In this document: positions 1 through 64,000 of the stretch, one piece after another
Layout of the letters: each line of letters opens with the position of its first letter
Numbering within the stretch: position 1 is the first letter of the stretch
Source: Cyanophora paradoxa CCMP329
Lineage: Eukaryota; Plantae; Glaucophyta
Assembly: GCA_004431415.1 (NCBI GenBank)
Contig: QPMI01000551.1
Span: forward strand, 170,959-234,958
DNA length: 64,000 nucleotides
Direction: 5' to 3'
Position numbers and translations under genes: made by a program
Notes under the pieces: model-generated
Database searches by the model: none
What the model was told of the DNA's origin: nothing
What the model saw: only the letters and a program-made list of their open reading frames with translations

Positions 1-19662
<19,662 letters not shown>

Positions 19663-33626: not shown

Positions 33627-34504
33627 AGCTCCTAGTCCTCCCTTAGTCCTCCCCCTCGTCCCCCCCCCCCCCCCCCCTCCCCCTTCCTCCGACCCTGCGC
33701 CACCCCCTCGCAACGCATCCCTTCCATCCAGTGGAAGGACGCCCTGGCCCCCCGCTTCCCGGTTTCCAACCCGACCCTCCTTCGCCCCCCCCCCCCCCCC
33801 CCACCCTCTTCCGCCCGTACCCGGCCCAATCCAGACTCTCTCGCCCGAAATCCTGGCGTCGCCCCTCTTCCGACGTCCCTCGTCCTCGCTCCGGACCGCC
33901 TCTCACGTTTCTTTCGCGGCGCTCTCTCCCTGCAGCCGCCCTCCCCAGTCCGTCCGTCTCTACGGCGCCAGCCCCGACCTTCTCCTGCCCCCCGCCGAGG
34001 GCTCGTCTCCTTGGCCTCGCGCTCACCCTCCCACCCCTTTTCCCAACTGGCAATCGAATGCTACAGTTCGATTCCAGCGCTCCACCGCCAACTTGCAGTC
34101 TTCATGCGCACAGTTGGCCATGGTGCATGCATGCGGGGTGCATCATGCATGCACCTTTAGACCGGCGCGGCCTATACGGCTTATAAGACCTAGCTGTAGC
34201 TATAGGCTGGCGCCGGCCGGGCGCCGGCGCGTCGAGGCGCCGGCATTTGCATCGGCCGGGCCGGGCAGCTGGCGCCGGCATGCGCATGCATATGGGGAAC
34301 GCTCCAGTTTCGAATTCTCCCCTCCTCTTAAACCCCCCTAGGCCTGTCGCGGCGCGTGCAGCAACTGCGGCCAAGACAGCCTGGCTAGATCGACAGGCCT
34401 GATAGTGCTGCAGCGGCAACCCGCATCGTCTTGCGACGCAGCTATTCGAAGCTCAGCAGGGATCGGGCTCGGTCGCGCGGCGCCTCCAGCGCCTCGGCGG
34501 CGCG

Positions 34505-37500: not shown

Positions 37501-37598
37501 GATATCGATGCGGATGCGGAGCGGGAGCGGGGGGGGCCGGGGCGCCCCGGCAGCGGGCCATCACCTCGTTCTTCACCCCGGGGCCCTTCGCGCCTTAG
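34505..37598 (+). CDS. SNM1: DNA cross-link repair nuclease SNM1/PSO2 (metallo-beta-lactamase/beta-CASP) (copy 1)
   Basis: Spliced motifs FLVDAF, WFLTHFH|SDHYGG (HxHxDH), [13 protein letters not shown]|[33 protein letters not shown]|[16 protein letters not shown] low-complexity tail ends in QRAITSFF. Confidence 0.92.
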
Positions 37599-37915
37599 CC
37601 GCCGGGCCGAACCGTACCGCAGCCGCTTCCGAGCCTAAATTGTTACGGGCCTATAGCTAATACCTGTCCCAGCAATGATCTATAGTGCTAGCCCGTGTCC
37701 CAGGCGCACCGGTAGGCAGAACGCAAGCAGGCAGCTGCAGTGATGATAGTATTAGCGTGTACCCAGACTGAATTTATTTCGAACCAGCCCAACAACGGGT
37801 ACGGCATAATTCTGACCATATGACCTAAGAAACGAATAATATTCAATATTATCACGACGGTTAAATTAAAGGCGGGGAAGAATATCGACAAGGTAATTAT
37901 ATATTACGACTATAA

Positions 37916-39923: not shown

Positions 39924-40033
39924 CGTTCGCGTTCGATTCCCGCGCTCTGGCTGGTTGTATTTGCTACTGTACCCTCGAATCCTCCGTTGCAACTAGCCGT
40001 CTTGAAAATTCGATCGGCACTCAGCGGGCCCGC

Positions 40034-42058
40034 ATGGCGTCGCTGGAGTCCCCTTGAGCTGTGCTTGAGCCGCGCCGGCTTGAGCTGTGCGCCCGCTGCG
40101 CACTTGAACGCGACCCGCGGCCGCACCCACGCCTCTGCGCAAGCGGCAGCGCAGAGAGCAGCTGGAGTTCGGGATACGCAGGAAGCTTGAGCTGGAGGGC
40201 CGCATAAGCGTCGCCCGCGTCGACACGCTCGGCCAGGTCCGTGCTGCTAGCCGCTGAAGTCACACGCCGCTGAGTGTGCAGCAGCTGATGCGCTCACTGG
40301 AGGAGATGTCTGGTATCGCCAAAGCTCGCAACGAGAGCATGCGCGGCAAGCTGGACGACATAACGAACTCGCTGCAGGCGGTGCGCCACGCTTCGAGCAC
40401 AACCGCAGGCCGCTACCTGCCCCGCATCACGCCTGCTGCGCGCAGATGTCGAAGGATACGCAGCTGAAGCTTCAAAGATCCTCCGTGGAGCACTTCAAGG
40501 CTCGCACCCGCCGGCAAAGCTGCCAATCACTCAATTGTTGCTGACAGGCGGACCACGCAGGCGGACTACTTCGCGCGGATGAAGAGCTGGTGGCCGCAGT
40601 GGCGCGAGGAGGTCGAGCGACACAAGGCCCGCGCCCGCCGCGGCCTCCACGCTATCGTAGCTAAGAGAAGGGGGCGCAGATCCGACAGGTGCACGAGTAC
40701 GAGACGGAGGCGGCGCGGGCAGAAGCGCGGCGGCGACTGGCGAGCGTCACTTTCGAGAAGGAACGCGTCCTGGCCGAGACCATCGCGAAGCGGGTGCCCG
40801 GCCCCGCCCCAGCGTATCTTTTGGCCGCCGCCAACGCCCGCCGCAGAAGCAGCAGCTCCAGGCGGTGCAGGAGGCGGAGCGGCGAGAAGCCATCGCGCGC
40901 GAGGTCGAGCGCAGGCGGCTCGACGAGGATGGTTCGTCAGCGGATCCTCTCCCCTCGCCCCGCCCGCCCCGCCGATGCCGGCGCAGCGAAGGAGATGGAG
41001 CGGGCGCTGGGGGACGCGGCGCGGGAAGAGATGCGCGCCGCGGCGGAGAAGGCGCTCGAGGAGGCCCACGAGCACCACCGCGAGCGCATGGGTTCGAATC
41101 CCCGCGGGCCCCTCCCGCGAGGCCTGACGCGCGCCCCGCCGCGGCGGCAGGCCGGATACAGGAGGACCTGAAGGCGCTGATGGGGCGGACGCGCGACGAG
41201 CACGAGCGGCGGGGCGAGGCGGACGCGGCCGCGCGGTGGCGGCAGGCGGAGCTCCTGCAGACGGCGGAGGCCGTCCTCCGGGTTCGAAGCCCCGCGGGGC
41301 CGCTTCCGCCGGGGCCGACGGGGGCGGGCGGGCGGCAGGAGGCGGACGCGGCGGTGGCGCGGCAGGCGGCGTCGCCGTCGGCGCGGGACTCGCTGGCGCG
41401 GGACCTCGCCGCCGCCCGCGCCGAGCTCGGCGACTCGTACAGGGCCGACGAGCCGTCCGTCGTGCGCGCCGGCGCCCCTCAGATGGGCCCTCCCGCGTGC
41501 CCACGGCCCCGCAGATGGACCCCGACGAGAGCGCGGCGGCCGGCGGGGCGGGCGTGGGCGGCGTGGGCTCGCCGGGCGTGCCGGGCCCGAGCCTGCAGAC
41601 GGCGCGGGCGGCGGAGGAGCGGCGCAGGGCCGGCGACCTCGTCGACGCCGAGCGCGACCGGGTGCGCGGTTCGGCCGGGCGGCGGGCGCGCCGCCGACGG
41701 GCCGGGGGGGGGGCAGGTGGAGGGCGCGATCGCGGCGAAGCGGGCGGAGCTGCTGCAGAAGGAGCGGGAGCACCAGGCGCTGCTGAAGCGGGTGCCGGCG
41801 CCCGGCCCCCGCGCCCCCGACGGGCCGGCGCCTGAGCGGGGGCCCGCGCCGGGGCCGGCAGCTGCGGGAGAGCGAGGAGCGGGAGGCGAAAGTGCGGCCG
41901 GAGCTGAAGGAGCGGGCGGAGCGCGAGGCGCGGATCCGGCAGGAGGCGCGCCGCGGGCCCTTTCGCCGCGCCCGCCGCCTCTGAGCGCGCAGCAGATGGA
42001 GGCGCGGCGGGGTGCGCCGGGGAGCCCCGGGGCCAGCAGGTGCCGTACCCCGGCAGCT
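40034..42058 (+). pseudogene. Coiled-coil protein gene, 3'-truncated at the duplication junction (copy 1)
   Basis: It has the same exons as 51116-53136 but is cut at 42056-42058, losing the exons present at 53139-53888. Confidence 0.7.
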
Positions 42059-42199
42059 ACATGCTACAGGCTACAGTTAAAACCTGGGGGCCGGGAGCGC
42101 GGCCCCGGGTCCCCTGAAAGCGGGGCCCACAAGTCTCAACGATGGAAAAAGAGCTCAAGCTGGAAAGAAGAAGAAGAAGAAGCAGAGGGGCAGCCGCGC

Positions 42200-43555
42200 C
42201 TAGGTGGAGACAGAGGCGTTCATGGTGCCCACGCGGCGGAAGAATGAATCCTTTACGATGGGGCGCCGCGCGTGCGGCGAGGGCTTCATCTGAGGTCAGG
42301 TGAGCCGTCTGAGGTCGGATGCAAGGGGCGGGGAGGCCGCGAGGCGGGGGCGCACCTGGGCGGAGACGGAGGGCGCGTCCAGGCCCCACCCGATCGCCGA
42401 GCTCGCGAGCATGTGGTGCCCCGACGAGTACGACGCCAGCGGGTCCTGGGGGAGGGGGAGGCTTAGAGGGGGGTACAGGCGCAGCAAAGGGAGGGGTACG
42501 CGGCACCTTCTTCGGGGAGGTGTTGGGCGAGGCGTTGTTCATGTGGCGGCAGAAGAAGACTGCGGCGCGGGGGCAGGGTGAGGCGAGGCGAGGCGAGGCG
42601 CGGGGCGGGGCGCGGGGCGGGCGCCCGGGGCGCGCACCGTCGCGAGAGCACTTGGTACAGTAGTCGCGCTTGTTGCGGATCGTGTCCAGGATGTCGTACG
42701 TGTACGTCGGCTCACGGGCCTGCCGGCGGGGGGCGCGTGAGGCGCGGCGCGCGCTCGTCCAAGGGTAGGGCGCACGGGCTCAAGCTCCGAGGGGTCCCAC
42801 TCGTCCTGTCCCATCGACTTCCCGACGCGGGCCTCCTTGCGCAGGAGCTCGCGCAGCTGCTCCGCCGAGATCGTCATCGTGTACTCGTCCCGCCGCGGGC
42901 TCGTGCTCGTGAGGAACCCCAGCTTCTTCTCCCCGTTCGGCTTGAAGCGATCCACGTACGGCTCGCCCTGCGCGGCTGCGTCAGCCGCGGCGCGAGGCGG
43001 CGGCCGGCGGCGAGGCGGCTCGCATTGAAGAGGACGTTGTAGTTCTCGGCGAACAGGCCGTCCAGCGTCTTGCCCTCTTTGGGCGCGGTGACCTTGAACT
43101 GCTTGCCCTTGAAGCGCTCGTCTATTTTCTGCGAGGGAGGTCAACACGCGGGCAGCCGCGCGAGGCTAAATGCGGGCGCGCGGCGCCCCAAGCTATTTCG
43201 GTGCCATTGCTCTCCGAAGCTGCAGAGCTCAAGCTATTCGTCATACAGACGCTGTTCTTCAAGGGGAACTTTTCTCGCTCAAAACCCCGAACGCCGTGAC
43301 GAGCAAGTTTGGCGAGGAGGGTCGGCGAGCGACAGGCGCACCTCGCGCTGGCCGTAAGGATCGCCTATCGTCGTGTAAGTTGGGGCAGAGAACAGCCCTA
43401 GTGCGTGGGCCTGCGGACGCCGCATGCGGTCAGACCGTACCGGCAAGGGCCGGCGACCCTTAAAACGGTCTAGAGGAGCCACTGCGCCTGCAAGGTGCCA
43501 AAAACGCGGCACGCACTCTCCGCGCTTCGTCCTCGGTCTGGACCTTGATCGGCAT
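42200..43555 (-). CDS. CFAP96/UPF0602-like flagellar protein (copy 2)
   Basis: Duplicate of 31124-32478; the frame is intact through RKEARVGKSMGQDEW. Confidence 0.55.
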
Positions 43556-43720
43556 GGCTTGTTCTGCCTAGGACGCCAACCTACTGTTGTTCTCAGGTTC
43601 CTGTTTCGGTGCTGCTGGTTGTCGCTTTGGGCGCGTGCTTTCTCAGTTACTGTACCCGGAAGAGAGACGGGTGTACCCAGTCGGCGCTGATGGCCTCCTC
43701 TGCGCTGTCGCTGGCCGCGG

Positions 43721-44703
43721 ATGGGCAGCTGCACCTCATCCGGTCTGAGAGTGCGTTTTGCTTCGTCCGCTCCGCCACCGCACCGCGCCCCTGGCCTCAT
43801 TCGCTTACTCCGGCGCAGTCAAGCCGGAGCTTACGGGAGGTCAGAACCTGCTCGAAGAGTTCGGGCTCATGGGCGAAGTGCAGGCCATCCTCAAGGAGCG
43901 CATGGAGCGCGCCGCGGAGAGCATAGCGCCGGCCGTCAAGCTCGATCCTGCAGCCGAGAAGGCGCGCAGGAAGGCGAAGAAAGCCGCGAAGGGCTTCAAG
44001 GAGCACATGGAGGGGCTCCCGCCGGCGCCGCTCAGCGCCAAGGTGTTCGGCAAGGAGAACAGCGACCTGCAGCGGCTCCTGCACCCGTACATACAGGACA
44101 ACAGGACGGACGTGCGGCAGCTCGACCACAGGAGCGTCGGGGCTGCGTTCGCGTTGGTCGCCGACAACACCATCAAGGAGCTGGTGGAGAAGCTGCTCGC
44201 CGAGAAGAAGCAGAAGAAGAAGGAGAAGCGGAAGCAAAAGAAGGCCGAGGGGGCCCAGGCGAGCGCGGCTGCAGGTGCCCCGCCCGCGGTGGCAGCGGCA
44301 CCCGCCGCGCCTGCTGGGGAGGAAAAGAAGAAGGCGCGTGGCGCCGCCCGCCGACGCTGCAAGCTCCGCGCTCACGCGGCAGCGTGCAGAAGCGGAAGAA
44401 CCCCGAGGACGGCGGCGCGGCGGCTGGGGACGGCACCGCGGTGGCGGAACCCGAGAAGAAAAAGAAGAAGAAGGAGAAAAAGGTCGGTGGCTTCGCACGC
44501 CGATGCGCAATTCGCCGCCCCCGCCGCCGCCGACTCCTCTGCAGGCGGAAGAGGCGGCTGCGGCGGCAGCGGCGGCGGCGGCCGCCGCCTCGACAGCATC
44601 CCCCGCAATTCGGATTCCCGCGCGATCCCCGCAGCGGCCCGCCGATGCCGCGGCCCCCGCATCCACGGGTACAACGATCACGATCAAGGGCCTCAAGAAG
44701 TAG
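43721..44703 (+). CDS. MED19: MED19/Rox3-like (copy 2)
   Basis: Duplicate of 32644-33626. Confidence 0.6.
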
Positions 44704-45586
44704 AGCTCCTAGTCCTCCCTTAGTCCTCCCCCTCGTCCCCCCCCCCCCCCCCCCCTCCCCCCTTCCTCCGACCCTGCGCCACCCCTCGCAACGCATCCCT
44801 TCCATCCAGTGGAAGGACGCCCTGGCCCCCCCGCTTCCCGGTTTCCAACCCGACCCTCCTTCGCCCCCCCCCCCCCCCCCCACCCTCTTCCGCCCGTACC
44901 CGGCCCAATCCAGACTCTCTCGCCCGAAATCCTGGCGTCGCCCCTCTTCCGACGTCCCTCGTCCTCGCTCCGGACCGCCTCTCACGTTTCTTTCGCGGCG
45001 CTCTCTCCCTGCAGCCGCCCTCCCCAGTCCGTCCGTCTCTACGGCGCCAGCCCCGACCTTCTCCTGCCCCCCGCCGAGGGCTCGTCTCCTTGGCCTCGCG
45101 CTCACCCTCCCACCCCTTTTCCCAACTGGCAATCGAATGCTACAGTTCGATTCCAGCGCTCCACCGCCAACTTGCAGTCTTCATGCGCACAGTTGGCCAT
45201 GGTGCATGCATGCGGGGTGCATCATGCATGCACCTTTAGACCGGCGCGGCCTATACGGCTTATAAGACCTAGCTGTAGCTATAGGCTGGCGCCGGCCGGG
45301 CGCCGGCGCGTCGAGGCGCCGGCATTTGCATCGGCCGGGCCGGGCAGCTGGCGCCGGCATGCGCATGCATATGGGGGAACGCTCCAGTTTCGAATTCTCC
45401 CCCTCCTCTTAAACCCCCCCTAGGCCTGTCGCGGCGCGTGCAGCAACTGCGGCCAAGACAGCCTGGCTAGATCGACAGGCCTGATAGTGCTGCAGCGGCA
45501 ACCCGCATCGTCTTGCGACGCAGCTATTCGAAGCTCAGCAGGGATCGGGCTCGGTCGCGCGGCGCCTCCAGCGCCTCGGCGGCGCG

Positions 45587-48500
45587 ATGCCGCCGCGGCG
45601 GCAGCGTCCCGAGGACGATGCGCCCGCTCCTCCGCCGGCGGACGGCTCCGCGATGCTGGAGGCGCTCGAGGCCTACGAGCGCACGCCTGGATTCAAGAAA
45701 GTGCCGAACACCACGTTCCTCGTCGACGCGTTCAAGCACCCGAACTCCGTCACAAAGCACTGGTTCCTGACCCATTTTCACAGGCGAGCTCCGCATCTCT
45801 CGCGCTTCCGCGCTCGGGATTTGACGCACGTACGCGCAGCGATCACTACGGCGGCATCACGCGGAGCTGGGCAGGCACTGTCGTGTGTACAGAGGTTCGC
45901 TCATCCTCCGCACGCCCTCTGACCTGGCCGGCCTCACGCGCGGGCCGGGGGCGAATCAGATCACCGCGGCGCTCGTGGCATTCACGTTCCGGATTCCGCT
46001 CTCGGCGATGGTGCGGCTGCAGCTGAACGTGCCTGTGCGCATCGAGGGCGTCGAGGTCAGCGCAGTTGCCGTCGCCGCCCGGCGCGCTGCATTCGAACGT
46101 CCCGGCTGCAGGTCACCGCGCTTGAGGCGAACCACTGCCCCGGCGCCGCCCTCTTTCTCTTCCGCGTCCCGATTCCCGGCTCGCCTGACGCGTACCGCAC
46201 CTACCTCCACACCGTGCCCTCCCTCGCCGCCCGGGCCCTTCCGCTTTTAAATTTCGCGCAGGGCGATATGCGGTACTGTCCGGCGATGAGGGCGTACCCC
46301 GCCCTCGCCAACGCTCCGATCGACATACTCTGTGCTTGACCCGCTAAGCTTCCCTGCTGCACCTCCCGCTGACGGCCGTCGCGTGGGCACGCAGATCTAG
46401 ACACCACGTGTGCGTCTGGCCCTTCGGCCTGTCCCCCCGCCCTTCCCTGTCTAACCGCGAAGCAGACTGCGCCCCCAAGCACGTATTCCCGACCCAGGCG
46501 AGTCCCCTGTACCCCGACCTCCGCGCCGCCCCTCTGTACCCCTCAAGCGGCCCGCAGGACGCTATGATCGATTTCGTCGTCGACGTCGTCCGCAAGAAGG
46601 TGTACCCCTGTCCCCGCACGCCCTTGCGAAAGCGGCCGGCGCTCAACGCCCTTCGCCGCAGATGAACTCTCCGCGCGTGCTCTTCGTCGTGGTACCCTGG
46701 GATGGGGTGCGGGGGGGGGGACCGCTTGCCTGACGGGGGTACAGGGGACCTACCAAATCGGCAAGGAGCGCGTCTTCGTTCGTCTGGCGCAGCAGACGGG
46801 TTTCAAGGTCTGCGTCGAGCCCAGGAAGCGCGTACCCCCCTCCCCGCCGCCCGTTCGCGTACCCCTCCGCCCCCGAGCCTCGCGCGGCAGGCTGGAGCTG
46901 CTCAGGCTGTGCCAGTACCCCATGGACCTCTTCACGACCGACCCCGAGCACCCTGCGGCGCGCATCCGCTGCATCCCGCTGTGGCACTGCAACCGCCAGC
47001 GTCTGTATCCCCGCTCGCCCTGCACCTGTACCCCCCGGCTCTCATTTGTACCCCGCAGGCCTGCGCGAGCTCAAGGCGAGCGTGAAGCACCGCTTCGATT
47101 CGATCGTCGGTCCGCCCGCCCCCCCTCCCCTGCACCGCGCCGTACCCCCGACGCGCGAATCGCGATACCCCGCGCCGCAGCCTTCCGCCCGACGGGCTGG
47201 TCCTTCAGCAACAACCAGACGGTGTCGCGCCAGCAGGCCGGCCCCGGGGTAGAGATCTACGGCGTCCCGTACAGGCGCGCGCGCCGTACCCCCGGCCCGC
47301 GGCGCCCCGCCGAGCGGTCTTCGGCCTTCCGCAGCGAGCACAGCAGCTTTGACGAGCTGCGCGAGTTCGTCTCGTTCCTCCTGCCGGGCCGCCTCGTCCC
47401 GACCGTCAACGCCTCCTCCCCGGGCGCCGTCCGCGTGCGCTCGGATCAGATATGAGCTCAGACGCGACCTGATCTCAAGCGCTTTCGCCGCAGGCGATGC
47501 TGAGCCACTTCCGCGGGCTCGTGCGGGGCGGGGACGGGCCCATCTCCTTCGAGCCCCACCAGGTACACTTACCTCCTCGTCTGTGGCTCCGCTGTGCTCA
47601 CGGCCGGCTCTCGGCAGGGCTGGGGCAGGCGTGCGGACAAAAACAAGAAGCCCGGCGACGCGCCCGCGGGCAGGGGCGGCCGCGGGGCCTCTGGCGGGCG
47701 CGGGCGGCCCCCCGATGACGTCGACGCCGGCCCGCCCGGCCCGCCCCCCGACCCGAAGCGGGGTACCCTCCTCTCCTTCTTCTCGCGGGCCCGCCCCGCC
47801 CCCGCCTCTTCGTCCTCCTCTTCGCCCACCGCCGCCTCCGCGCCCCGGGCTGTCCCCTCCCCCCCCTCCCCCTCCTCGTCCTCCGCGCCGCCGGCCGGGC
47901 CGGAGCCTCGGCCTCGTCCCGGCTCGCCGGCATCTGGAGGGCGTTCCTGGGCCCCGGCCGCCCGCCAGCGGCCCCGGGAGGCCCGAAAGGCCCGGGAGGG
48001 GTACCGCGCCCGTCATCGACCTCGATGCGGCCGTCGTGGACCTGGAGGGGGACGACGGCGAGGGGTACAGGAGCCGGAGCCGGAGGGGACGAGGGGGGGA
48101 TGGAGGTGGACGGGGGGAGGAATCGGAGGAGGGGTTCGACCGGGAGGCCTTCATCGCCTCTCAGTTCCAGGTACCCCCCGTGCACCGAAGATCCCGTACC
48201 CTCCCGCTGAGCGCGCGCCCTCGAAGGTCCGCGAGCTGGCTCCCGATCCTGAGGAGGAGGGGGAGGAGGAGGAGGGGGGAGGAGGAGGGGGAGGCGGGGC
48301 GGCTCTGGGACGAGGAGTGGGAGGGGCCGAGGCCGAAGGAAACGCGGCGGCGGCGGCCGAGGGCGGAGGGGGCGAGTCGCCGCCTCGGACGGGTGTGGGG
48401 CAGGCGCCGCCCTCGCCCCCGCGGCCCGGCCCCTCGCCGCCGCCTCCGCCGCCCCGCGCCGGCCCCGCCGCCCCCGCCGCTGTCATCGACCTGACGGCCT

Positions 48501-48682
48501 CCCCGGGGCCCCCGCCCCCGCCCGGCGCCCGCGGGCGGAAGCGGCCGGCAGCCATGGCGGACCCGCCTCCGCGGGCCGCGGGGGATATCGATGCGGATGC
48601 GGAGCGGGAGCGGGGGGGGGCCGGGGCGCCCCGGCAGCGGGCCATCACCTCGTTCTTCACCCCGGGGCCCTTCGCGCCTTAG
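45587..48682 (+). CDS. SNM1: SNM1/PSO2 nuclease (copy 2)
   Basis: Duplicate of 34505-37598, with several homopolymer indels in the GC-rich tail. Confidence 0.9.
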
Positions 48683-48999
48683 CCGCCGGGCCGAACCGTA
48701 CCGCAGCCGCTTCCGAGCCTAAATTGTTACGGGCCTATAGCTAATACCTGTCCCAGCAATGATCTATAGTGCTAGCCCGTGTCCCAGGCGCACCGGTAGG
48801 CAGAACGCAAGCAGGCAGCTGCAGTGATGATAGTATTAGCGTGTACCCAGACTGAATTTATTTCGAACCAGCCCAACAACGGGTACGGCATAATTCTGAC
48901 CATATGACCTAAGAAACGAATAATATTCAATATTATCACGACGGTTAAATTAAAGGCGGGGAAGAATATCGACAAGGTAATTATATATTACGACTATAA

Positions 49000-51005
49000 T
49001 TACGACTGGTTAAGGCCTCGAGTGGCGACAAGAGAAAGGAGAGGGCGAAGGACAGGAAGCCTGGACTCAGATTTTACAGAACGCAGCCGAAACTCTGGCG
49101 CCTGGCCAGGCGTCCTGCAACAACTGCTTGACGATCCTGTCGTAGCCTTCTTCCTGAGAGTAGAGACGAACATGAAGTACCGGGGACGTGAATCTGTTGG
49201 CGCACGCGCCCAGTTGCTGCTCACGACATTCGCATGAGCGGCGACACTTCTGGAAATATGAATAGCACGGTTGCCGCATTTATGCCGCACCTGCAGCGGT
49301 CCGATATGTGCGACGGAGCGAAGGTTGCAGCTCACAGATAGAAACTTGAGCTCTGCGCAGAGATGAATGGCATCCGCTTCCGACGCGGCGAGAGGCCGCC
49401 TGACGTGGAGAGCCAATCCCCGAAGCACATGCTTGCATGCGATGAGGAGACTCGAAGCAGCTTCTGCTTCCACGTGCACGCTGCTGTCTGCGCAAAACAG
49501 TCGGTCCAAGGTTCAGGATCGGGCGTAGAGCGAGCGGTGAGCTCGGGGCGCACTTCGAGGCGTGCCGGTCGAGTCGCCAAGATCGAGAGATAGCGAAGAT
49601 AGCTTCGGGCACCCGGCGATGGCCTTCTCGAGCGCTTGGAAGCGTTCGACGGTGCACGCGTCTTTTTCCACTCGCACGTTCACGGTTCGTAAGCTGGGCG
49701 AACGGAAAGCAGCGAGGTCGGAAGGCTGCAGTTCCGGGCGGCTCAGCTGCGAAGCGCGATGAGTGGACGCGAGAGGGAACGTTTGAAAGGGCTCACATCC
49801 ATATCAATCTCTTCGAGAAGAGGGAAACGCGCGATGGCCTGTAGAGCCGCGCTGTTGACGGAAAAGAAACTCCTGAGACGATACAGTTCACAGCCGACGT
49901 GAGCAGCAACAGGTGCGAGAGTTGATGGCGGTGGAGAGCACTCACCGAGTACCTTCGGGACTCAAGGCAAACAACAGCGATCGAAGGGTACTGCAAGCCG
50001 AGCCGTCGCGATCGGCAAGGGAAGAAAGCGCGCTACTGATCTCAGAAGGTTCTGCATGTTCAATGAAAGAGTGCCAGCAGATAACCACGTCGCGCAAAGC
50101 GGACAGCGGCGCGAGGGCCGCAATCGCCTCGCATTCGTCAGGCTGGAAGTGGATTGACTGAAGGTTTGGGAGGCTGCGGGCGATGGCCGCTGCTGCTGCG
50201 CCGCCTACGGGAAACGCATTCGGCATGAACTCGAGGGAACGAACGCTGCACAAAGGCTCCAGGGACGCTTGCAGGTCCCGGGAGTCGCCTTTTGGGCGAG
50301 TCCAGCGCCGCGAAGGAAGATAACGCGGCCCTTTTCCCAATTCGGCGGCGGCTCCAGGCGAATGGCAAGCTTCTCCAGGAAACTACGCGCCCCACGCTGC
50401 GGCCGAAGGGCTGCAAGCGTGCCGAGGATGAAAGCATGCACTATGCTAGCGCTGTTCAGGGTGCTGATATCTGTTGCTACGAAGCACAAGTCGACTTCCG
50501 TCAGGCTGCGCATGCAGCTGCTGTCCTTGTTGCAGGCCGTGAGCACGGCGCAGGCCGATGCGACGAGACTGTAGTTGCGCAAGCTGTCCGCGCCCATTCT
50601 GGCGGCCAACCGCAAACACAGGCGGGCAGCGCTAGCTGCAGCTGCAGGGAGCTTGATCTTCCCGCTCCGGAGCAGCGACGCCAGCTGCTCGAAGTCCGCG
50701 GGGTCATTCGACCGCAGCTCGACTTCCTCCCACGCTTTGCTCTCGATCACGCTCCTCCAACGCCTGCGCGGCGGCGCGCGCGTGAGTCGGCGCGGGCCAT
50801 GATCAACGCGCGCATCGGCGAGAGGCCCGGCGACGAACCTGCATACTCCTCGAACCGGCCAGGCGGACGCCAGCGATAACGACTGCAAAACGTGGCCGAG
50901 GACGCCGTCGGGAAGGTCGGAGATGGAACGCAGCGCCGCGCTCGTCCCGACGTCGTTCGCTGGCGCATCTGCCCGTGCTCGTTTCGCTACACGTTCCCGC
51001 GCCAT
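49000..51005 (-). CDS. F-box/LRR-like protein (copy 2)
   Basis: Duplicate of 37916-39923; 1-bp deletions near 50280 and 49545 break the frame (probable read errors). Confidence 0.75.
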
Positions 51006-51115
51006 CGTTCGCGTTCGATTCCCGCGCTCTGGCTGGTTGTATTTGCTACTGTACCCTCGAATCCTCCGTTGCAACTAGCCGTCTTGAAAATTCGATCGGC
51101 ACTCAGCGGGCCCGC

Positions 51116-53397
51116 ATGGCGTCGCTGGAGTCCCCTTGAGCTGTGCTTGAGCCGCGCCGGCTTGAGCTGTGCGCCCGCTGCGCACTTGAACGCGACCCGC
51201 GGCCGCACCCACGCCTCTGCGCAAGCGGCAGCGCAGAGAGCAGCTGGAGTTCGGGATACGCAGGAAGCTTGAGCTGGAGGGCCGCATAAGCGTCGCCCGC
51301 GTCGACACGCTCGGCCAGGTCCGTGCTGCTAGCCGCTGAAGTCACACGCCGCTGAGTGTGCAGCAGCTGATGCGCTCACTGGAGGAGATGTCTGGTATCG
51401 CCAAAGCTCGCAACGAGAGCATGCGCGGCAAGCTGGACGACATAACGAACTCGCTGCAGGCGGTGCGCCACGCTTCGAGCACAACCGCAGGCCGCTACCT
51501 GCCCCGCATCACGCCTGCTGCGCGCAGATGTCGAAGGATACGCAGCTGAAGCTTCAAAGATCCTCCGTGGAGCACTTCAAGGCTCGCACCCGCCGGCAAA
51601 GCTGCCAATCACTCAATTGTTGCTGACAGGCGGACCACGCAGGCGGACTACTTCGCGCGGATGAAGAGCTGGTGGCCGCAGTGGCGCGAGGAGGTCGAGC
51701 GACACAAGGCCCGCGCCCGCCGCGGCCTCCACGCTATCGTAGCTAAGAGAAGGGGCGCAGATCCGACAGGTGCACGAGTACGAGACGGAGGCGGCGCGGG
51801 CAGAAGCGCGGCGGCGACTGGCGAGCGTCACTTTCGAGAAGGAACGCGTCCTGGCCGAGACCATCGCGAAGCGGGTGCCCGGCCCCGCCCCAGCGTATCT
51901 TTTGGCCGCCGCCAACGCCCGCCGCAGAAGCAGCAGCTCCAGGCGGTGCAGGAGGCGGAGCGGCGAGAAGCCATCGCGCGCGAGGTCGAGCGCAGGCGGC
52001 TCGACGAGGATGGTTCGTCAGCGGATCCTCTCCCCTCGCCCCGCCCGCCCCGCCGATGCCGGCGCAGCGAAGGAGATGGAGCGGGCGCTGGGGACGCGGC
52101 GCGGGAAGAGATGCGCGCCGCGGCGGAGAAGGCGCTCGAGGAGGCCACGAGCACCACCGCGAGCGCATGGGTTCGAATCCCCGCGGGCCCCTCCCGCGAG
52201 GCCTGACGCGCGCCCCGCCGCGGCGGCAGGCCGGATACAGGAGGACCTGAAGGCGCTGATGGGGCGGACGCGCGACGAGCACGAGCGGCGGGGCGAGGCG
52301 GACGCGGCCGCGCGGTGGCGGCAGGCGGAGCTCCTGCAGACGGCGGAGGCCGTCCTCCGGGTTCGAAGCCCCGCGGGGCCGCTTCCGCCGGGGCCGACGG
52401 GGGCGGGCGGGCGGCAGGAGGCGGACGCGGCGGTGGCGCGGCAGGCGGCGTCGCCGTCGGCGCGGGACTCGCTGGCGCGGGACCTCGCCGCCGCCCGCGC
52501 CGAGCTCGGCGACTCGTACAGGGCCGACGAGCCGTCCGTCGTGCGCGCCGGCGCCCCTCAGATGGGCCCTCCCGCGTGCCCACGGCCCCGCAGATGGACC
52601 CCGACGAGAGCGCGGCGGCCGGCGGGGCGGGCGTGGGCGGCGTGGGCTCGCCGGGCGTGCCGGGCCCGAGCCTGCAGACGGCGCGGGCGGCGGAGGAGCG
52701 GCGCAGGGCCGGCGACCTCGTCGACGCCGAGCGCGACCGGGTGCGCGGTTCGGCCGGGCGGGCGGGCGCGCCGCCGACGGGGCCGGGGGGGGGGCAGGTG
52801 GAGGGCGCGATCGCGGCGAAGCGGGCGGAGCTGCTGCAGAAGGAGCGGGAGCACCAGGCGCTGCTGAAGCGGGTGCCGGCGCCCGGCCCCGCGCCCCCGA
52901 CGGGCCGGCGCCTGAGCGGGGGCCCGCGCCGGGGCCGGCAGCTGCGGGAGAGCGAGGAGCGGGAGGCGAAAGTGCGGCCGGAGCTGAAGGAGCGGGCGGA
53001 GCGCGAGGCGCGGATCCGGCAGGAGGCGCGCCGCGGGCCCTTTCGCCGCGCCCGCCGCCTCTGAGCGCGCAGCAGATGGAGGCGCGGCGGGGTGCGCCGG
53101 GGAGCCCCGGGGCCAGCAGGTGCCGTACCCCGGCAGCTCCCTCCCCTCCTGCCCCCCGCGCCGCCCGACGGGGCGGCAGCGCGGCGGGGTCGGTGCCGTC
53201 GCCGGACGCGCGGCGGCGGCCCCCGCCCGAGCTCCGCGTGGAGGAGTTCGTCGCAGAGGGCCACGCCGAGCGCGCCGAGGGTGCGCGCCCGGCGCCGCCG
53301 CGGGGCGGCGCGGCCTGTCTCACGGGGGCGGCGGGCGGGCAGAGCGGGACCGGCGGGCGCGGCAGGAGGCGGATGAGGCGGAGCGCAGGCGGCGGGA

Positions 53398-54737: not shown

Positions 54738-54802
54738 TTTTGGCGCGTTAATTTGGTACCGCGTTAGTTAAAGTGCCCGCGGTACTTAAGTGCTTTACGG
54801 TA
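54738..54802. mobile_element. Right-end fragment of the TACCGT MITE family
   Basis: GGCGCGTTAATTTGGTACCGCG...TACGGTA resembles the right end of 55824-56088. Confidence 0.5.
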
Positions 54803-55823: not shown

Positions 55824-56088
55824 TACCGTGTGGCACTAAATTACCGCGGCATAAATTACCGCGTTAGAAACTCCGGCCCAAGGGCCAAGGGTGGCCAAAA
55901 TACCGCGGTACCAAATTACCGCGTTTTAAAAAACTTGAGGCTTGTATCGGGCGGAATCTCAGGGGGTGGGGCGACTTCGCAGGAGACAAATACCGCGGTA
56001 CCAAATTACCGCGTTTTAACAAATTCTCGGCGCGGTAATTTGGTACCGCGGTAATTAAGTGGGCGCGGTATTTATGTGTTCTACGGTA
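55824..56088. mobile_element. MITE, TACCGT family, copy B (265 bp)
   Basis: TACCGTGTGGCACTAAATTACCGCG ... CGCGGTATTTATGTGTTCTACGGTA; repeated AAATTACCGCG; central AGGCTTGTAT at 55938. Confidence 0.75.
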
Positions 56089-57065
56089 GACAACTCAGCC
56101 GCCACTGGCCCGCCAGTGCCCGCCAGCGGCCCGGCCCCAGCTGCAGCCTGCAGACCGCCGCGCGCGCGGCCCGCGGCCGCCACTGCATGGCCCATTAAAT
56201 AATATTGTCATTGGCCAGTACTCGTGGGCTAGAGTTTCAGTTAACGTTTCAGAGTCTGCGGCGCCGGCCTGGCAAAAATAGGGGAATTTCCCGCGGAAAT
56301 GTCGGACCTCGTGAAAAAAGCCTAATTTTATGTCGGCCGCGGTCCGTTAGACGGACCGGGACGTCGACGTCAGCCGCACGTGCACCACGGACCACGGTCC
56401 ACGGACCACGGGCCACGGCCCGCACGGTCATGCAGCGACTCAGCGCTATATACCCCGGTACACGCGGGGTGACGCGGTATACTGTCATGTCATTAAGTTA
56501 GGCGTCGTTTTAGTTAGAAGTTTGCCCGCCCCTCCGAGGCTCGTGATAGACGTTCACAAAGATAGACGAATGAATTACGATAGACGAGGGGGGGGACCCC
56601 CCCCCCCCTGGCGCGCAGCGCCAGGCGACGGGGGCTGGCGGGGCTCTACAGCTGCGAAATCGAGGTGCGGAGGGAGCCCAGGCCGCACTCCTGCCACGAG
56701 GCGACCCCGACGGTCTTGTTGTTGGCGCGACCCCGCTGCCTGTGCTGCTGTGCTGCTGTGCAGCACGCATGCGCGACGCGTACGTCGACGTCGACGCGCG
56801 CCGGCCGGCGCCGGCGCCGCGCGACTAAGTCCGGGACCAATAGGAAAGGTTTTAGTTAGACGAGTACCCACCCTCGTCTATCCGCGCCTATCATTGTGTA
56901 CGCCTAACTTTGTGACATGACAGTATACGTAGCGCGTTGACTCAGCGAGTCGCCGCCGACTCGCCGGTGACTCGGCGGTGACATCACTGACATTTACATT
57001 TTTCGCGCCACGCGTGCATGATAGAACCCAGTGACCAATGGGGTTCCCCCCCTAATGGGGCCGGT

Positions 57066-57317
57066 TATAATAATTATACGAATATCCGACAACGTTTAGT
57101 TTCATCTATATTCGCCAGACCCTCGCGCTGGCGAATATTTGACGCTGGCGAATTAAGCCTCTGTATTGAGAGAGGGGTAGTAGCGGCTGACCCCTCTGCG
57201 GAGAAGTCGCGGGGTGGCCCCGGGTGGCGAAATCAAGACGCTCGCAGATTAATTTTCGCCAGGGGTTTCGGTTTTTGGCGAATTAAAGTGCTGGCGGATA
57301 TTCGTACGTTTACAGTA
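57066..57317. mobile_element. MITE-like element with TGGCGAAT repeats
   Basis: Imperfect TIRs (...TACGAATATCC / GGATATTCGTA...CAGTA); internal TGGCGAA/TTCGCCA repeats. Confidence 0.5.
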
Positions 57318-57692
57318 TCTCCGGAATGATGCGGCGGAATCCGGATCCTGTGTGTGTGTACTTTGCATATATGATAGAATCGAGTATATACTGTACGCTT
57401 GAGCGTCCGTCCGGACTCCGGACTCCGGACTCCGGAGTCCGGACTCGGGATTCGGGATTGAGAAATCGATATCCGATGATCGACATGCATCACTGAATCA
57501 TGGCATGGCCAATTAAAAATATTGCCGGTACCGTGCCCGACGGTCCGACGGTCGCGCCGCGCGCGCGATCGCGACTCGCGCGCTGCGCATGCATATATGC
57601 ATGCATATGATGCATGCCCAAGCAGCCCATGGCCAACCACGCGCGCCCCGCGGCCGGCGGCCGGCGCCAGGCATTGCGCCAGCGCCCTGTTG

Positions 57693-57987
57693 TACCGTGT
57701 AACACATAAATACTAGTACTGGACCCACTTAATTAACAGAGTCCCAAATCATGGAATTAACAAACCGAAAGTTTGACATAGTCTGTTAATTTGGGACTCT
57801 GCTAATTCACTGCTGTCAGTCACCTCATACTATCTACCCCCCAAAATTACGGCCTCATACAAGCCTAAATTTGCATGATCTGTTAATTTGGGATTCTGTT
57901 ATTTCGCCAAAGGGAGGGCCAGACTCTGAGATTAACCTGTTAATTAACGGACTGTTAATTTAGTGTTACACCGTTAGTTACACGGTA
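57693..57987. mobile_element. MITE, TACCGT family, copy C (295 bp)
   Basis: TACCGTGTAAC ... GTTACACGGTA; repeated AATTAAC/GTTAATT; central core inverted (ATACAAGCCT, 57857-57866). Confidence 0.75.
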
Positions 57988-58474
57988 TACGTACCGATCC
58001 GGATCCTCCGACTCGGCGATCATCGGATGATTCGGATCCCGATTCCCGATTGCCCGAATTCGAATCAGCCCGAGTCACTGGAGTCAGTAGAGACTCAGTA
58101 CTAGTGGCGGGTCCGACGGTCACTGGCCATATATATGCATGGCGCCGGCGACGTCGACTCTGCCGGCGCAAGTCACTGCCGAGTCAGTGCCGACGTCGAC
58201 CCTTTGCGAAGAACCCACCCCACTGGGCCACTGGGCCAGCTGCAGAAAACCTCGTAGGAGTCATAGCGTAGGGCCGTAGGCTACTATATAGCTATATCTA
58301 GCTAGTAGTCCTTCTAGTCCGACGGCCGCGGCCAGACCTGAGAGGCTGAGAGCCTGAGACTCTGATCATGAGACGTCGACGCACGGCGGCGGCGACGGCG
58401 GCGGTAGCGGCAGCAGCAGCAGCAGCACTGCAGCAGAAGAAGCAGCACGCGCACTGCAGCTGCGGCATGTCATC

Positions 58475-58553
58475 ATCACACATATGAATATTCATATTTT
58501 AATCCCTCGGCGTTCCGCCTCAGGATTAAAATATGAATATTCATATGTGTGAT
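58475..58553. repeat. Hairpin: perfect 31-bp inverted repeat with a 17-nt imperfectly paired tip
   Basis: ATCACACATATGAATATTCATATTTTAATCC (58475-58505), then CTCGGCGTTCCGCCTCA, then GGATTAAAATATGAATATTCATATGTGTGAT (58523-58553). Confidence 0.97.
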
Positions 58554-58559
58554 TCGATG

Positions 58560-59260
58560 TTATATCAATAAAATCGATTAATTTATTTGAATTTTCACCT
58601 GAATTTTCATATTTTTACATGCATTTTCAATTAATTTAATCGATGTTATATCGATAAACTCGATTAATCGATATTGTATCTTAATTGTAGTTAATCGGAA
58701 TTATATCAATAACTTCGATTGATCTTAATTGAATCCTAAATGAATCTAATCGGAATTATATCAATAAATTCGATTAAATCATGTTCTTTTCCGATTAAAT
58801 CAATTAAATATTTAACTTTGTTATCAGAAGTGGTCTAAGTTGACTCACTTTTCATAAACATTTTGAACTCTTAGTCTCTTTGAATTTCTTAAGATGACTC
58901 AACTTAGTCAACTTAGTCAACTTTGTTACCATAATCAATCAGGGTGGACTCACTTTTAGATCAACTTTGAAATTTCAAGCAAAATCAACTTGGATTTCAA
59001 AAGTGGATCTTCTAAGTGGACTCAAAATGTTCACTTTGTGATACATGTTAGCTCAAATCCTTACTGTTTATGGTCAGGGTTGACTAAGTGGGGGAGTTGA
59101 CACATTTTTTGAAATCCTTTTTAGAAAACTTTAGGTCCCAAATATTTCCTGTGAAATTTGAGTCAACTCAACCCACTTAGTCAACCCTTGCATTGAATTC
59201 GTAACAAAATCCATATACTATTACTACTTTTACGATTAATATGAGTCAACCTTGAGTCAC
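58560..59260. promoter_or_regulatory. Non-coding terminal region with iteron-like direct repeats and an inverted repeat (putative origin/terminal repeat)
   Basis: TTATATCRATAAnnTCGATT at 58560, 58646, 58701 and 58756. Many GTTGACT/AGTCAAC/GTGGACTCA motifs. AGGGTTGACTAAGTGGG (59076-59092) is inverted at 59172-59188. Confidence 0.55.
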
Positions 59261-59495: not shown

Positions 59496-59894
59496 TCAAA
59501 ACGGGAATCTATCATGTTTATGTCTCTCAGTCTTCTCAAATGTGAGGAAATTCATTGTTTTATCGATCTCATCTGCTACTGCTTGTGTTTTATGCTGAGC
59601 TTCTTTACCACAACTGAATATATCAATTGCTAACATGCCTTCATTGGAATAACAATGAGCTGTACAATGGCTTTCATCTAATAGCAGAACCAATGCAAAA
59701 CCAGGAGGTGATAGTTTCCCATCAAATATCTCACAGTGTTTATGAACAATCCTAATACCTTGTCTCAATATTGCTTGTTCAAGGGTTCTCATAATCCAAT
59801 TACCAAGAAAGCTAACATGCTCATAGCCTGTTGCTATAGCTGTTTTAGCCTTGTAATCAAGCATTACATGAAAGCCTCTGTATTTAGTCTCCAT
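59496..59894 (-). CDS. speD: Pyruvoyl-dependent S-adenosylmethionine decarboxylase proenzyme (short prokaryotic class 1B type)
   Basis: Intact 132-aa ORF with G.HVMLD near the N-terminus and PPGFALVLLLDE^SHCTAHCYSNEGMLAIDIFSCG (ES autocleavage site, SH, DxFxCG). Confidence 0.9.
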   Translation of the reverse strand: METKYRGFHVMLDYKAKTAIATGYEHVSFLGNWIMRTLEQAILRQGIRIVHKHCEIFDGKLSPPGFALVLLLDESHCTAHCYSNEGMLAIDIFSCGKEAQHKTQAVADEIDKTMNFLTFEKTERHKHDRFPF

Positions 59895-59934
59895 TAAGAA
59901 TACCTTAGAAAAATTAATTAATCCTAATCGAACC

Positions 59935-60191
59935 TAATGCAAATATCCCTGTACTCTACTTTGATTGATGAAGTAGCCCTTTTCCTGTAAGCCTGAGAAT
60001 GCTTTTGTTGCATTCCTACAACCTGATCCCTTCACATGATTAAAGGATATGTAAGGATCACCTTGTTACACTGCAAACATCTAACAGATACTTCTCTTGA
60101 GCTTTGATGTAATGTGTCTCACTGTAATCGAATTTATCTTTACCATGAACTGTCATAGCAGCATCAATAAACTTTTTTGTTTACTATCCAT
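59935..60191 (-). pseudogene. Zinc-ribbon (DUF723-like) protein, frameshifted as assembled
   Basis: Across frames it reads KKFIDAAMTVHGKDKFDYSETHYIKAQEK / VSVRCLQCNK / FNHVKGSGCRN, the F..A..VHG..FDYS...Y...C..C...H..G.GC pattern of large-DNA-virus and phage zinc ribbons. Confidence 0.6.
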
Positions 60192-60194
60192 ACT

Positions 60195-61036
60195 CTATAT
60201 ATAACCAATATTCTTTGGAGCAGTATCCTGCCCAAAATGGGAAATATCGATTTGTCCCATAGTATTCAGCATAGGTATTCTGCTTTGCAATAAATCGGTT
60301 CTCTCAGCATATAATACACACTTGTAGATACCAAACTTGGTGGCTCTAACCAGAAACTGATAATCTTCCAAACCAAAATTGACTCCATGATAAGCAATTC
60401 CGAAATTATCATATGGGGTGATCACAACAGCAAAATTAGGAGTTCCACCCTCTACTTGACAAAGAGCATAAACATCTGGTGGGATATCCACAACTACCTT
60501 GTAGTGGTCACCAATTTCACAAGAGAGTCTACTACTGCTGTTTGTTCATTTACAACAATGGGGAATATTTTTTATATAGGGGCATTCATGCTGGGGACAT
60601 AGGTTCGAATTCTTGTGTTGGATCAATGGATTGGGTTGATCATTCACAAATAAAGGCGCTCCAACAGCCCCACCAACCCTAAGACCATCCCCAATATATG
60701 CTCCCCCCGATTTGCAGTTAATAGCTCCCGACCTAGATTCAAAAGAATAAGTAGACAGAGGATCTCCATAGCTATCTGGGTCTCCATAATGAGCAGAAAA
60801 GTTTGCATTTGTGACAAGTAGCTTAGTTGTCTTAACTATTCCATTATTTTTATCACATCTGAGTTCCTGTAATCTCAGTTTGTGGGTGGAACCAAAGGTG
60901 TTCATTGTAGGTTGGACCTCTGTGGATTGGAGACCCTCTACATCATCAAAGGTAGCATGCTGTAAAACATGGTTTGCTGGGGCAGCTAATGATAGTTTGA
61001 GGTGTAATAATTCGTTCAAGTGGGGTGCTCAGCCAT
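60195..61036 (-). CDS. Fibre-like virion protein paralogue 1 (frameshifted as assembled)
   Basis: ATG at 61036; shared module ELRCDKNNGIVKTTKLLVTNANF...KSGGAYIGDG. ORFs 60546-61019 and 60195-60491 are probably one gene. Confidence 0.55.
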
Positions 61037-61058: not shown

Positions 61059-61892
61059 TTTATGGGGTTGGGTCATCAATTACATCTGGCTCCATGTAAA
61101 ACCCTGTAACTGAAAGAGTATCAGGAGTTACACCTCTAAGAGCTGATACAGCGGCTATATCTGTTCTCAAACCGATAAGAGTTATAGTATATAACCCAAT
61201 ATCAGTAACAAACAAGTCAAAGGTGAAATTATTATTATAACACAGTAGCCATAACCGAAATGATTATATCCTGAACATTGAAATAGTATCTATGACCTAC
61301 TTGATTGTTGTTGGCTCTACAAAGGGAAAGCATTGCAGATGGAATCGCAAGACCTCTCAGTACTCTTTGGTTCCTTCAATTAATTCCGAGTTTTCAAGAG
61401 TAACAGTATATCCAATGTAAAATTGAATTAATGGCTGCTGTGCAACAGGAGTATATAATCGAATTCGTTGGGGTCTTCTACATTTTGCTCTAGAGTATCT
61501 GGGACATCATTATACGAATTGAGGATGAAAGCTGACCTGAAATTCGACAGCCACCCCAATAAATGCTCCTCCTGATCTCACAGTAACAGCAGCAGAATTC
61601 TTATCGAAATCAAGGGCTTTCAGATCAACACTGTAAGCATCAGGACCTCCATTGGTAGGCTGGAAAAAGTTAGCATTTGTGACAAGAAGTCGAGTTGTTT
61701 TAACCACACCAGAATTCTTATCAGCTCTCAGCTCTTAACTCGAATAATCGAATTTTTATCAAGGAGTTGCCATTGGAATTGGGTCTCTCTGTGGATTCTA
61801 ACACGAACCTCATCATTTACTTCATGCTGGCGAAATGCATTGCAGGGGATCCAAGGAATATATAGCAGTTGAACTCGATTATATTCACCCAT
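61059..61892 (-). CDS. Fibre-like virion protein paralogue 2 (multiple frameshifts)
   Basis: ATG at 61892; ELRADKNSGVVKTTRLLVTNANF...VTVRSGGAFIG; ends DVIDDPTP* at 61059. Confidence 0.5.
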
Positions 61893-62205: not shown

Positions 62206-63221
62206 TTATGTGACACTCAAAAGTTCACCTGTGAATGTTGTTCGATTTGTGTAGCTACCCCCATTATTTGTTACAAGTGTTATATACTCACCCATAGCAA
62301 TGTTAAGAATTACACTAATGTAAAGCGGTTTATTCGTAAGAGTTGAGTCATTGTGTTATGATACTTTGACCCCCTGGTCTTGGTCATTTACTTTTAAAGA
62401 GAGACTTATTGGACTACTTGAAGTTGAATGGGTATATGCTGTAAATCTGTAATGACCTGCACAGGAGCAGTGAACCTTCCATTACTGACATTGAATGCCC
62501 CCTATATTCACAAACACTACTCCCCAATTGATAAGAGCAGTTTCACTGGTAGCAACATGAGGATAATTAGTTGAACAGAAAATCGAGGCTGATAGTCATA
62601 TTTTAAATAACAATTTGTGTTGATTGTCAAGCGATTGGCTTCCAGAGTAGCCATAATATCACTGTTGCGTTTCAAAACAAGATTCACATTTGCTCCTGTA
62701 TCGATTTCAGGTGTGACCACCTTGGAAGTTGCTGTTATTATCGATTGTGTTGTTTCTGGAATACTTATGCCTCCATTGGCTGTTACTGAACCTGTAAATG
62801 TGCTTGTTCCTGTAATGTTTACTTGATTGGCTGTTAGAGTTCCATCAATCCTTGCCCCATCTCCAATATATGCCCCTCCACTTCTAACTGAAAGAGCAGC
62901 ATTATTAATTGTATTATCAAAAGTAACTATTTTGGGTGTGGTGAACCCTCCCACATTGTCATAAATTGCTGTATCTGAAACAATTTGACCTGATTGGACT
63001 TGGTTCTTGTTAGATACAATGAGTCCTGTGGTTCTTATTTTTCCCCCATTGCGATCACATCGAATTTCTTTGCATCTAATCACAGAATTTTGTGAAAACG
63101 AATCAGCCCCTGTTGTTTCTGTGCAAATAAACCCAGGTGTTGCATCTGTTACTGTATGGTTCAGTTGATGTATTTTTGGGGCGGCATAACAGAAAACAGG
63201 AACTGCTATTTGTGTGGACAT
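62206..63221 (-). CDS. Fibre-like protein paralogue 3 with C-terminal C1q/TNF-like head
   Basis: EIRCDRNGGKIRTTGLIVSN...SVRSGGAYIGDGARIDGTLTA. After frameshifts it reads GAFNVSNGRFTAPV and ends TFTGELLSVT*. Confidence 0.65.
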
Positions 63222-63243: not shown

Positions 63244-64000
63244 TTATGTAGCAGTAACAAGATAACAAGAAAAATAGTATCTGATATCAAATTGAAGACT
63301 GGCTCCAGAAGAATTGCGTATATCAAAGGAGTCACCTTCAATAACAGAAAGTAAAATTTCATATGAAATTGGAGTTACAAATGTATTAGAAATCCCTGCG
63401 GACGGCATTGAAACCCTTGTTGGATGGTTGTAGGATTTCCATTTAAATAAATGCTGGTAGCAATATGAGTATAAGAGGTTGTGCCAGCTCTCATACATGC
63501 AAAGAACACCCTATATACTCCGGAAACAGGAGCTGTAAATTTTGTGGATGAAAAGTTTCCTTCATTGTTTACAAGATAAGCTCCATTTATAAAGTTAAAG
63601 GGTGTTCCAGCTGTAAGTATTATGGACCCTGTCAAACCAGGAGCTTGTCTTGATATATTCATTCTTGGACAATAGGATCGTTTCAGACCACTATTTTCCG
63701 GGATTGTGATTGCTTTCAGATCTGTTATTGTCTTTTCGAGAGTGAAAATGGTATTTCCGTTTCGTTTATAATTCACATTTGCATCTGTCCCATTATCCAT
63801 CTCAGGGCATTAACTCTTGTTGTAGCTTTTCGAGTTTCAACGCTAACATTTCCCAAAGTCCACCATTGAAGGTCATCAATCCTGTAATGAACTTGTCCCA
63901 TTCACATTTAATTGATTCGCTGTTACAGTCCCTGCAACATTTGCCCCATCTCCAATGTATGCTCCTCACTCTTGACAACAAAGCCGAATTATTTATTGTG
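63244..64000 (-). CDS. Fibre-like protein paralogue 4 with C1q/TNF-like head (5' part outside the window)
   Basis: GAYIGDGANVAG near 63930-63970; NNEGNFSSTKFTAPVSGVYRVFF; ends EGDSFDIR...YYFSCYLVTAT*. Confidence 0.65.

Follow-up and report, generated by a model that had tools for sequence, protein, structure and literature searches.

The locus treated here lies at 58475-58553 of the window, the 64,000-nt stretch of DNA that was analysed, where a long inverted repeat stands between GC-rich host DNA and AT-rich, virus-like DNA. It raises the question of how the end of a viral element comes to carry a palindrome, and what such an end may do. How polinton-like viruses replicate their ends without a protein-primed polymerase is an open question. 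A sequence-only reading had explained the structure as the hairpin telomere of a linear viral genome that was nicked close to the tip, opened out and joined to the chromosome or, alternatively, as a recombinase or protelomerase site. On balance, we lean towards another account, in which a high-copy, AT-rich and likely polinton-like viral family in a glaucophyte has this palindrome as its common outer tip, and in which the palindrome likely serves in fold-back hairpin priming or in closing the excised DNA end.

The two arms (58475-58505 and 58523-58553) are exact reverse complements over 31 bp and enclose a 17-nt centre (58506-58522). With a (TA)n run left out, this is the longest perfect inverted repeat with a spacer of up to 60 nt in the window. 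GC content drops across it from 0.62-0.68 (58300-58449) to 0.18-0.28 (58550-58899), and both the perfect repeat and its place at the compositional switch (about 0.65 to about 0.22) are therefore as first described. The DNA fold of 58465-58563 has a predicted energy of -35.5 kcal/mol (z -13.4), equalled by none of 200 shuffles. In agreement with the mismatched fold proposed earlier, the centre is predicted to form a 3x3 internal loop together with a 4-bp mini-stem capped by a 3-nt loop; the axis of the repeat, at this loop within the mismatched centre, is not self-complementary. Each arm also holds its own 16-bp perfect palindrome (58482-58497 on the left, 58531-58546 on the right), another feature that was rightly noticed. 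A pattern scan of the window allowing up to two mismatches found the 16-nt sequence at these two positions only (expected 0.00), and 173 of 200,000 shuffled 28-nt arms contained a palindrome of this 16-bp type. Two sub-terminal arrays follow: imperfect, partly self-complementary AT-rich repeats with periods of about 27 and 55 bp (58550-58800; periods 55 and 27 in the repeat scan at 58646-58777), and non-coding 9-nt motifs in both orientations (58828-59260; period 9 at 58899-58923). The predicted fold and these arrays thus put an incompletely paired AT-rich hairpin sequence next to tandem repeats.

The junction between host and element is genuine, without a chimeric join. Among the public runs listed, 20 of 24 contained the stretch or part of it, all from one organism. 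The single-copy host flank joined to the tip (57864-58477) is represented by a 640-641-nt contig with a depth of 21, 65, 34 and 115 in runs X1, X2, X5 and X13, respectively. A contig of this length covers 57864-58379 in all four runs, and in X1, X2 and X5 it also spans 58448-58503/58504 at single-copy depth, reaching about 30 nt into the left arm; it stops there because a 31-mer assembly must halt on entering a repeat. Run X1 may be from the window's own sample, while X2 and X5 are from different samples and different years. The sequence-only reading had named a chimera as one outcome that would overturn it, and the crossing from host DNA into the left arm in three of three runs removes that concern. 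Many 1-nt differences between the window and the short-read contigs inside the element could be taken to suggest an assembly artefact, either a chimeric join or a fold-back read, but contigs running from flank to arm and over the centre recur in all three runs, from different samples and years, and we discount this explanation almost entirely.

Although all 31 bp of the arms given by the sequence-only reading pair perfectly in this copy, the element's own arms are most likely about 28 bp long, and the shared family tip most likely starts at 58478. High-depth contigs begin at 58478 in X1, low-depth variant contigs begin there in X2 and X5, and another flank adjoins 58478 directly. Loose ends before 58473, 58476 and 58478 represent three other flanks in X1, with two in X5 and one in X2. 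The partly matching contigs at the tip are few (5 in X1, 7 in X2 and 2 in X5), the probable reason being that the overlap of most flank contigs with the arm is too short. In depth-bin fits for X1, a start at 58478-58479 gave an rms of 324-505 against 1346 for a start at 58475, and the worst-fitting model was that with 31-bp arms in all copies. By the fold, the contig starts and these fits, the outer tip of the element is most likely the 73-bp palindrome at 58478-58550, consisting of 28-bp arms and the mismatched 17-nt centre; its top strand folds at -29.5 kcal/mol and its bottom strand at -30.6 kcal/mol. Going by their perfect pairing and the depth models, the three extra bases at 58475-58477, which pair with 58551-58553, belong to this copy only and probably come from the host DNA at this particular insertion. 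The cause is possibly instead a fold-back that is longer here than in other copies, or a slightly variable opening point, the latter being kept as an alternative because we estimate from base composition a prior of only about 1% per copy for three host letters pairing in this way.

Contig depth over the asymmetric centre is 2019, 4991 and 2595 in X1, X2 and X5, against 21, 65 and 34 over the flank. The centre therefore stands at 96-105, 75-77 and 72-77 times the single-copy flank, and the tip contigs listed at 92-109, 57-77 and 72-77 times, respectively. These depths point to the palindrome being the fixed tip of a dispersed high-copy family with 60-100 ends, a figure that is an estimate, contig depth being a proxy for copy number and no direct count. 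Depth changes from the single-copy level of the flank to the high level of the element at the left arm, which places the palindrome at the extreme end of the element, abutting host DNA. By the same proxy (72-105 times the flank, and 1.04 and 1.05 times the inner DNA in X1 and X2, respectively) the palindrome is common to the copies of the family. The short-read contigs carry no alternative letters over 58448-58610 and many further inside.

The same centre at 72-105 times the flank depth, with several flanks, means that opening occurs repeatedly at one point, give or take a base or two, and the idea of a singular, P-nucleotide-like capture of a poxvirus- or chlorovirus-type telomere is not supported by this result. 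What holds of the opened hairpin telomere is a viral end at a real host junction that can fold incompletely paired, for which a closed form is plausible; the one-off opening does not hold. We accordingly regard it as improbable that a hairpin-ended genome of the giant-virus type was nicked arbitrarily near its tip, unfolded and ligated by host end-joining. The succession of an AT-rich, incompletely paired hairpin, tandem repeats and then genes does resemble poxvirus flip/flop telomeres and NCLDV ITRs, as described in the available parts of PMC8956199 and PMC12085832; relatives of one of the element's genes sit in giant-virus-like contigs, giant-virus insertions have been reported in C. paradoxa (PMC12344493, available sections), and this copy pairs three bases beyond the family minimum. 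However, the start is common, to a base or two, to all of the estimated 60-100 ends, and arbitrary nicks would leave graded left-arm depth and long mirrored stretches, whereas no strand-changing joint is listed. Moreover, the poxvirus and NCLDV structures in those accounts are covalently closed ends of free genomes that arise from resolved concatemer junctions, while the palindrome here is opened, double-stranded and joined to the host at many sites.

The genes beside the tip are of viral type. The outermost is an intact gene of the polyamine pathway for S-adenosylmethionine decarboxylase (AdoMetDC) of 132 aa (59496-59894, minus strand; Pfam PF02675, E 1.8e-11; PHROG 3125). Four fibre-like paralogues follow on the same strand. 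The first (60195-61028) has the shared N-terminal domain and is 53% identical to protein P0026 over residues 2-248 in one frame, with a stop splitting the window sequence; the second (61363-61734) is a fragment, frameshifted in the window and recovered by tblastn with P0026, P0024 and P0027. The third (62517-63221) has homologues with the same N-terminal domain and C1q or other heads, several of them from Cyanophora paradoxa. The fourth (63375-64000) runs off the window and bears a weak C1q/BclA-like head (Pfam E-values of 0.005 for BclA_C and 0.06 for C1q, neither of which passes the cut-off); its stretch 63881-63999 matches 62791-62912 at 75% DNA identity. A C1q domain was found in P0027 (E 1e-11) and P0028 (E 2.5e-6), and for the fibre-like protein a PDB sequence search gave weak C1q-type (Caprin-2) matches only and the AlphaFold model had a pLDDT of 32. 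Many of the frame breaks in the window's element fall where high-depth contigs have a 1-nt insertion, and could stem from errors in the assembly or from decay of this particular copy. Two short frames at 59934-60180 (minus strand), neither of which matches Pfam alone, may together resemble the zinc-ribbon repeat of giant-virus homing endonucleases.

The host is likely the glaucophyte Cyanophora paradoxa: two of the ten clusters matched in the fibre-gene search are proteins of this species, as are all four homologues of a host F-box gene (EukProt, 47-75% identity). The element differs from the host in GC content (0.34-0.39 against about 0.6-0.8) and in CpG observed/expected (0.43 against 1.13). 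The low CpG value fits CpG methylation in C. paradoxa, which is known for repeats and viral genes according to the available sections of PMC12344493.

Table S6 of PMC12220804, whose columns were matched by script, lists 156 glaucophyte polinton-like elements, of which 139 have an A32 ATPase, 85 an rve integrase, 66 AdoMet_dc, 49 pPolB, 40 D5_N and 34 PIF1. A recognised PLV major capsid occurs in only 2 of the 156 and a tyrosine recombinase or PF00589 in none; AdoMet decarboxylase goes unmentioned in the main text of the study. The present element is most likely of the AdoMetDC-bearing kind among these. It shares with the C. paradoxa polinton-like elements of that study the host lineage, the AdoMet decarboxylase gene, fibre-like genes and a large number of copies, and the three other flanks attest dispersed multi-copy insertions of a GC content unlike that of the host, as is typical of polinton-like elements. 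Membership is likely by virtue of the host, the copy number and the match of AdoMetDC to the published count, and not of a hallmark gene: the 5.5 kb of the element within the window hold no capsid, ATPase, integrase or replication gene. A larger virus is conceivable as an alternative, since relatives of the AdoMetDC, found in four metagenome loci, sit in gene sets that read as giant-virus-like in three and as bacterial in one. Could the element instead be a large, capsid-less and non-viral transposon, hairpin-ended, whose fibre-like and AdoMetDC genes were acquired by capture? The window without a capsid gene and the few recognised MCPs among glaucophyte elements would agree with this, but four tandem fibre-like paralogues, with homologues bearing C1q heads, and a packaging ATPase in 139 of 156 glaucophyte elements make it very unlikely in our estimate.

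Searches beyond this genome gave no further relatives. Exact-pattern scans for the arm had no matches in IMG/VR or in the JGI metagenomes, and protein-based IMG/VR scans confirmed relatives in none of 17, 38 and 13 candidate stretches. A metagenome scan yielded four loci from 140 candidates, none related to the element, and no comparable terminal palindrome was present among the longest inverted repeats shown for them.

Under the polinton-like reading, the enzymatic steps that we infer would be as follows. Once the element is excised, its 3' end would fold back on the 28-bp arm and serve as a primer for DNA synthesis, with no need of a terminal protein. Nicking at a specific site, where the 28-bp stem begins, would then open the end closed in this way. 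The 3' end thereby released would be linked to host DNA by an integrase of the rve type, and filling of the remaining gap would make the palindrome fully double-stranded again at every new insertion site. As putative binding sites for the proteins involved, we propose the 16-bp palindromes and the sub-terminal repeat arrays.

A simulated free, hairpin-ended form that is read through its tip has a centre-to-inner depth ratio of about 0.5, and the observed ratio of about 1 thus implies that most copies in the samples hold the palindrome opened and double-stranded. This ratio argues against a large free hairpin-ended pool, and no strand-changing or fold-back joints are present among the contig joints listed at the tip in X1, X2 and X5. 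On both grounds, a covalently closed free linear end does not appear to be the main form, and a free hairpin-ended form may exist as a minor pool. The same two observations would also suit a tip that is fixed in the family and never was a covalent hairpin, being a double-stranded binding or cruciform site for an integrase or helicase, or a passively copied relic of one fold-back repair. We consider this unlikely, while giving it real weight. Each arm has a perfect 16-bp palindrome of the kind bound by dimeric proteins, and the available part of a preprint on Halocafeteria seosinensis (10.64898/2026.07.28.741278) names accidental annealing at single-strand breaks as an alternative source of such structures. 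A depth model with the flip orientation only also fits the right-arm bins almost exactly (2773 vs 2773). Yet perfect arms with no variant letters over 58448-58610, against many inside, suggest selection on the tip, and the best overall fit, with half of the copies inverted, hints weakly at the hairpin intermediate that such inversion needs.

That fit was the best of 36 depth models (rms 197). It reproduces the breaks at 58478 and 58551, starts one base further out and uses a guessed rule for placing contigs; the flip-only model (rms 336) fits the left arm more poorly than the right and lacks the 58551 break. All isomer models assume a contig-placement rule with two free parameters, their fits do not separate 0 from 50% flop, and short contigs cannot link the orientation of the centre to the DNA beyond the arms. 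The break at 58551 was considered as a sign of a single orientation and dropped, as simulations show that other models fit; it could also be explained by a single variant copy or by a lone palindrome without the element. A loose end at 58526 in X1 was library adapter and was set aside. At 58513 in X1, X2 and X5, another copy (about 17 deep in X1) follows the left arm to the apex loop and continues into unrelated sequence, as would result if other DNA had inserted in the loop or if the tip had broken.

A perfect palindrome keeps no trace of a past hairpin, whereas the mismatched centre makes orientation countable: judged by the fold and the contig depth, the asymmetric 17 nt at 58506-58522 would tell flip from flop isomers. 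Together with the estimated 60-100 integrated ends in a cultured alga it permits a direct test, in which the presence of both orientations would mean a hairpin intermediate. We put forward only tentatively, as one possible extension of the favoured account, that the free form has covalently closed, mismatched hairpin ends, that the integrase step nicks about 28 bp down the stem, and that both flip and flop are frozen at dozens of sites. If true, this would be genomic proof of hairpin replication, rolling-hairpin or poxvirus-like, in an rve-integrating polinton-like virus, and would reveal a route of integration with a closed telomere as its starting point.

The other proposal of the sequence-only reading, a protelomerase or tyrosine-recombinase site from which a linear episome is excised, finds parallels in the accessible parts of two papers: phaeoviruses pair tyrosine-recombinase integration with a telRL-like site (PMC13236599), and inverted repeats and tyrosine recombinases occur together in some PLVs (PMC11296320). 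Against it, the axis here is not self-complementary, whereas telRL-type sites, as that phaeovirus account has it, are cut at a 6-bp palindromic core. None of the 156 glaucophyte elements has a tyrosine recombinase, none of the 13 element frames scanned against Pfam encodes a telomere resolvase or tyrosine recombinase, and a cut at the junction would be expected to leave a hairpin-capped break in the host chromosome. We therefore regard this proposal as highly improbable. The integrated phaeovirus EVE nevertheless remains comparable, since there, too, an inverted repeat in an algal virus is associated with a linear form that ends in hairpins; its telRL-like site is internal and served by a tyrosine recombinase, while the palindrome here is at the junction and unpaired at its axis (PMC13236599, same extract).

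The closest likeness is to the Halocafeteria elements, where, in the available part of the preprint, the TIRs of virophage subtypes 1, 2, 5 and 6 and PLV subtype 4 are tipped by palindromes that adjoin TSDs. Those palindrome-tipped elements mostly have non-pPolB replication genes together with rve integrases, and hairpin priming was put forward for them as a hypothesis. The contrast once drawn between hairpin-ended genomes and integrase-mobilised virophages or PLVs is therefore not supported, since rve-integrase elements carry such tips. As in Halocafeteria, where it measures 52 nt in subtype 5 and occurs in all complete copies, the palindrome here is tens of bases long, lies at the extreme end adjoining host DNA and, judged by depth, is shared by the copies of its family, and the elements are low in GC in a protist of higher GC, with the same hairpin-priming role proposed. 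Unlike those described in that part of the preprint, ours is from a glaucophyte, is 73 bp long and contains a further palindrome of 16 bp within each arm; its 17-nt centre is mismatched. This kind of end is thus already in print; the glaucophyte case adds to a recently described kind and extends palindromic viral tips to glaucophytes. The PLV inverted repeats have also been linked to poxvirus termini (PMC11296320, accessible part). Palindromes or hairpins are not mentioned in the main text of PMC12220804 or PMC8547959, and no mention was found in PMC8502044, PMC10120064 or 10.1101/2025.10.09.676808; in the literature covered, to which subscription papers do not belong, we found nothing on hairpin or palindromic ends of Cyanophora elements.

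The other end of the element, with any TSD, lies beyond the window. With no halving of depth just inside the tip, either the TIR is long and gene-bearing or only one end carries the palindrome. Depth steps down between 59.7-60.5 kb and 61.1-61.5 kb, from 1845-2201 to 1080-1238 in X1, from 4825-5942 to 2387 in X2 and from 8746-10586 to 4436 in X13. This step of about 2:1 is what one would expect from a TIR of about 2.5 kb with genes in it, and the TIRs of 0.2-2.3 kb in the EMALEs of Cafeteria burkhardae, which are likewise low-GC multi-copy insertions in a GC-rich protist, are in the range that the step implies (PMC8547959, available part). The step may instead reflect subfamily divergence; because depth rises again at 61.7-61.9 kb and then falls to about 20 copies beyond 62.2 kb, both this and a one-ended palindrome are retained as possible readings.

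Other repeats were noted elsewhere in the window. A second perfect inverted repeat, with 23-bp arms, again a 17-nt centre and a 10-bp palindrome at each arm end, lies at 55991-56053, with partial copies at 55898-55933 and 54742-54802, and may be the end of another mobile element. The non-coding stretch 56038-57749 is bounded by imperfect inverted repeats (56038-56088 and 57693-57749) and is probably a host repeat family beside the insertion; summed depth is 15-20 times single-copy at 57002-57503 and 57755-58005. Further away, positions 1-11600 contain a tandem array of at least seven units, each about 1.63-1.74 kb long, which encode cysteine-rich repeats and include a (TA)n run that varies in length, and a tandem duplication of about 11 kb (about 31500-42600 and 42570-53100, at a spacing of about 11,080) contains host genes including an F-box gene.
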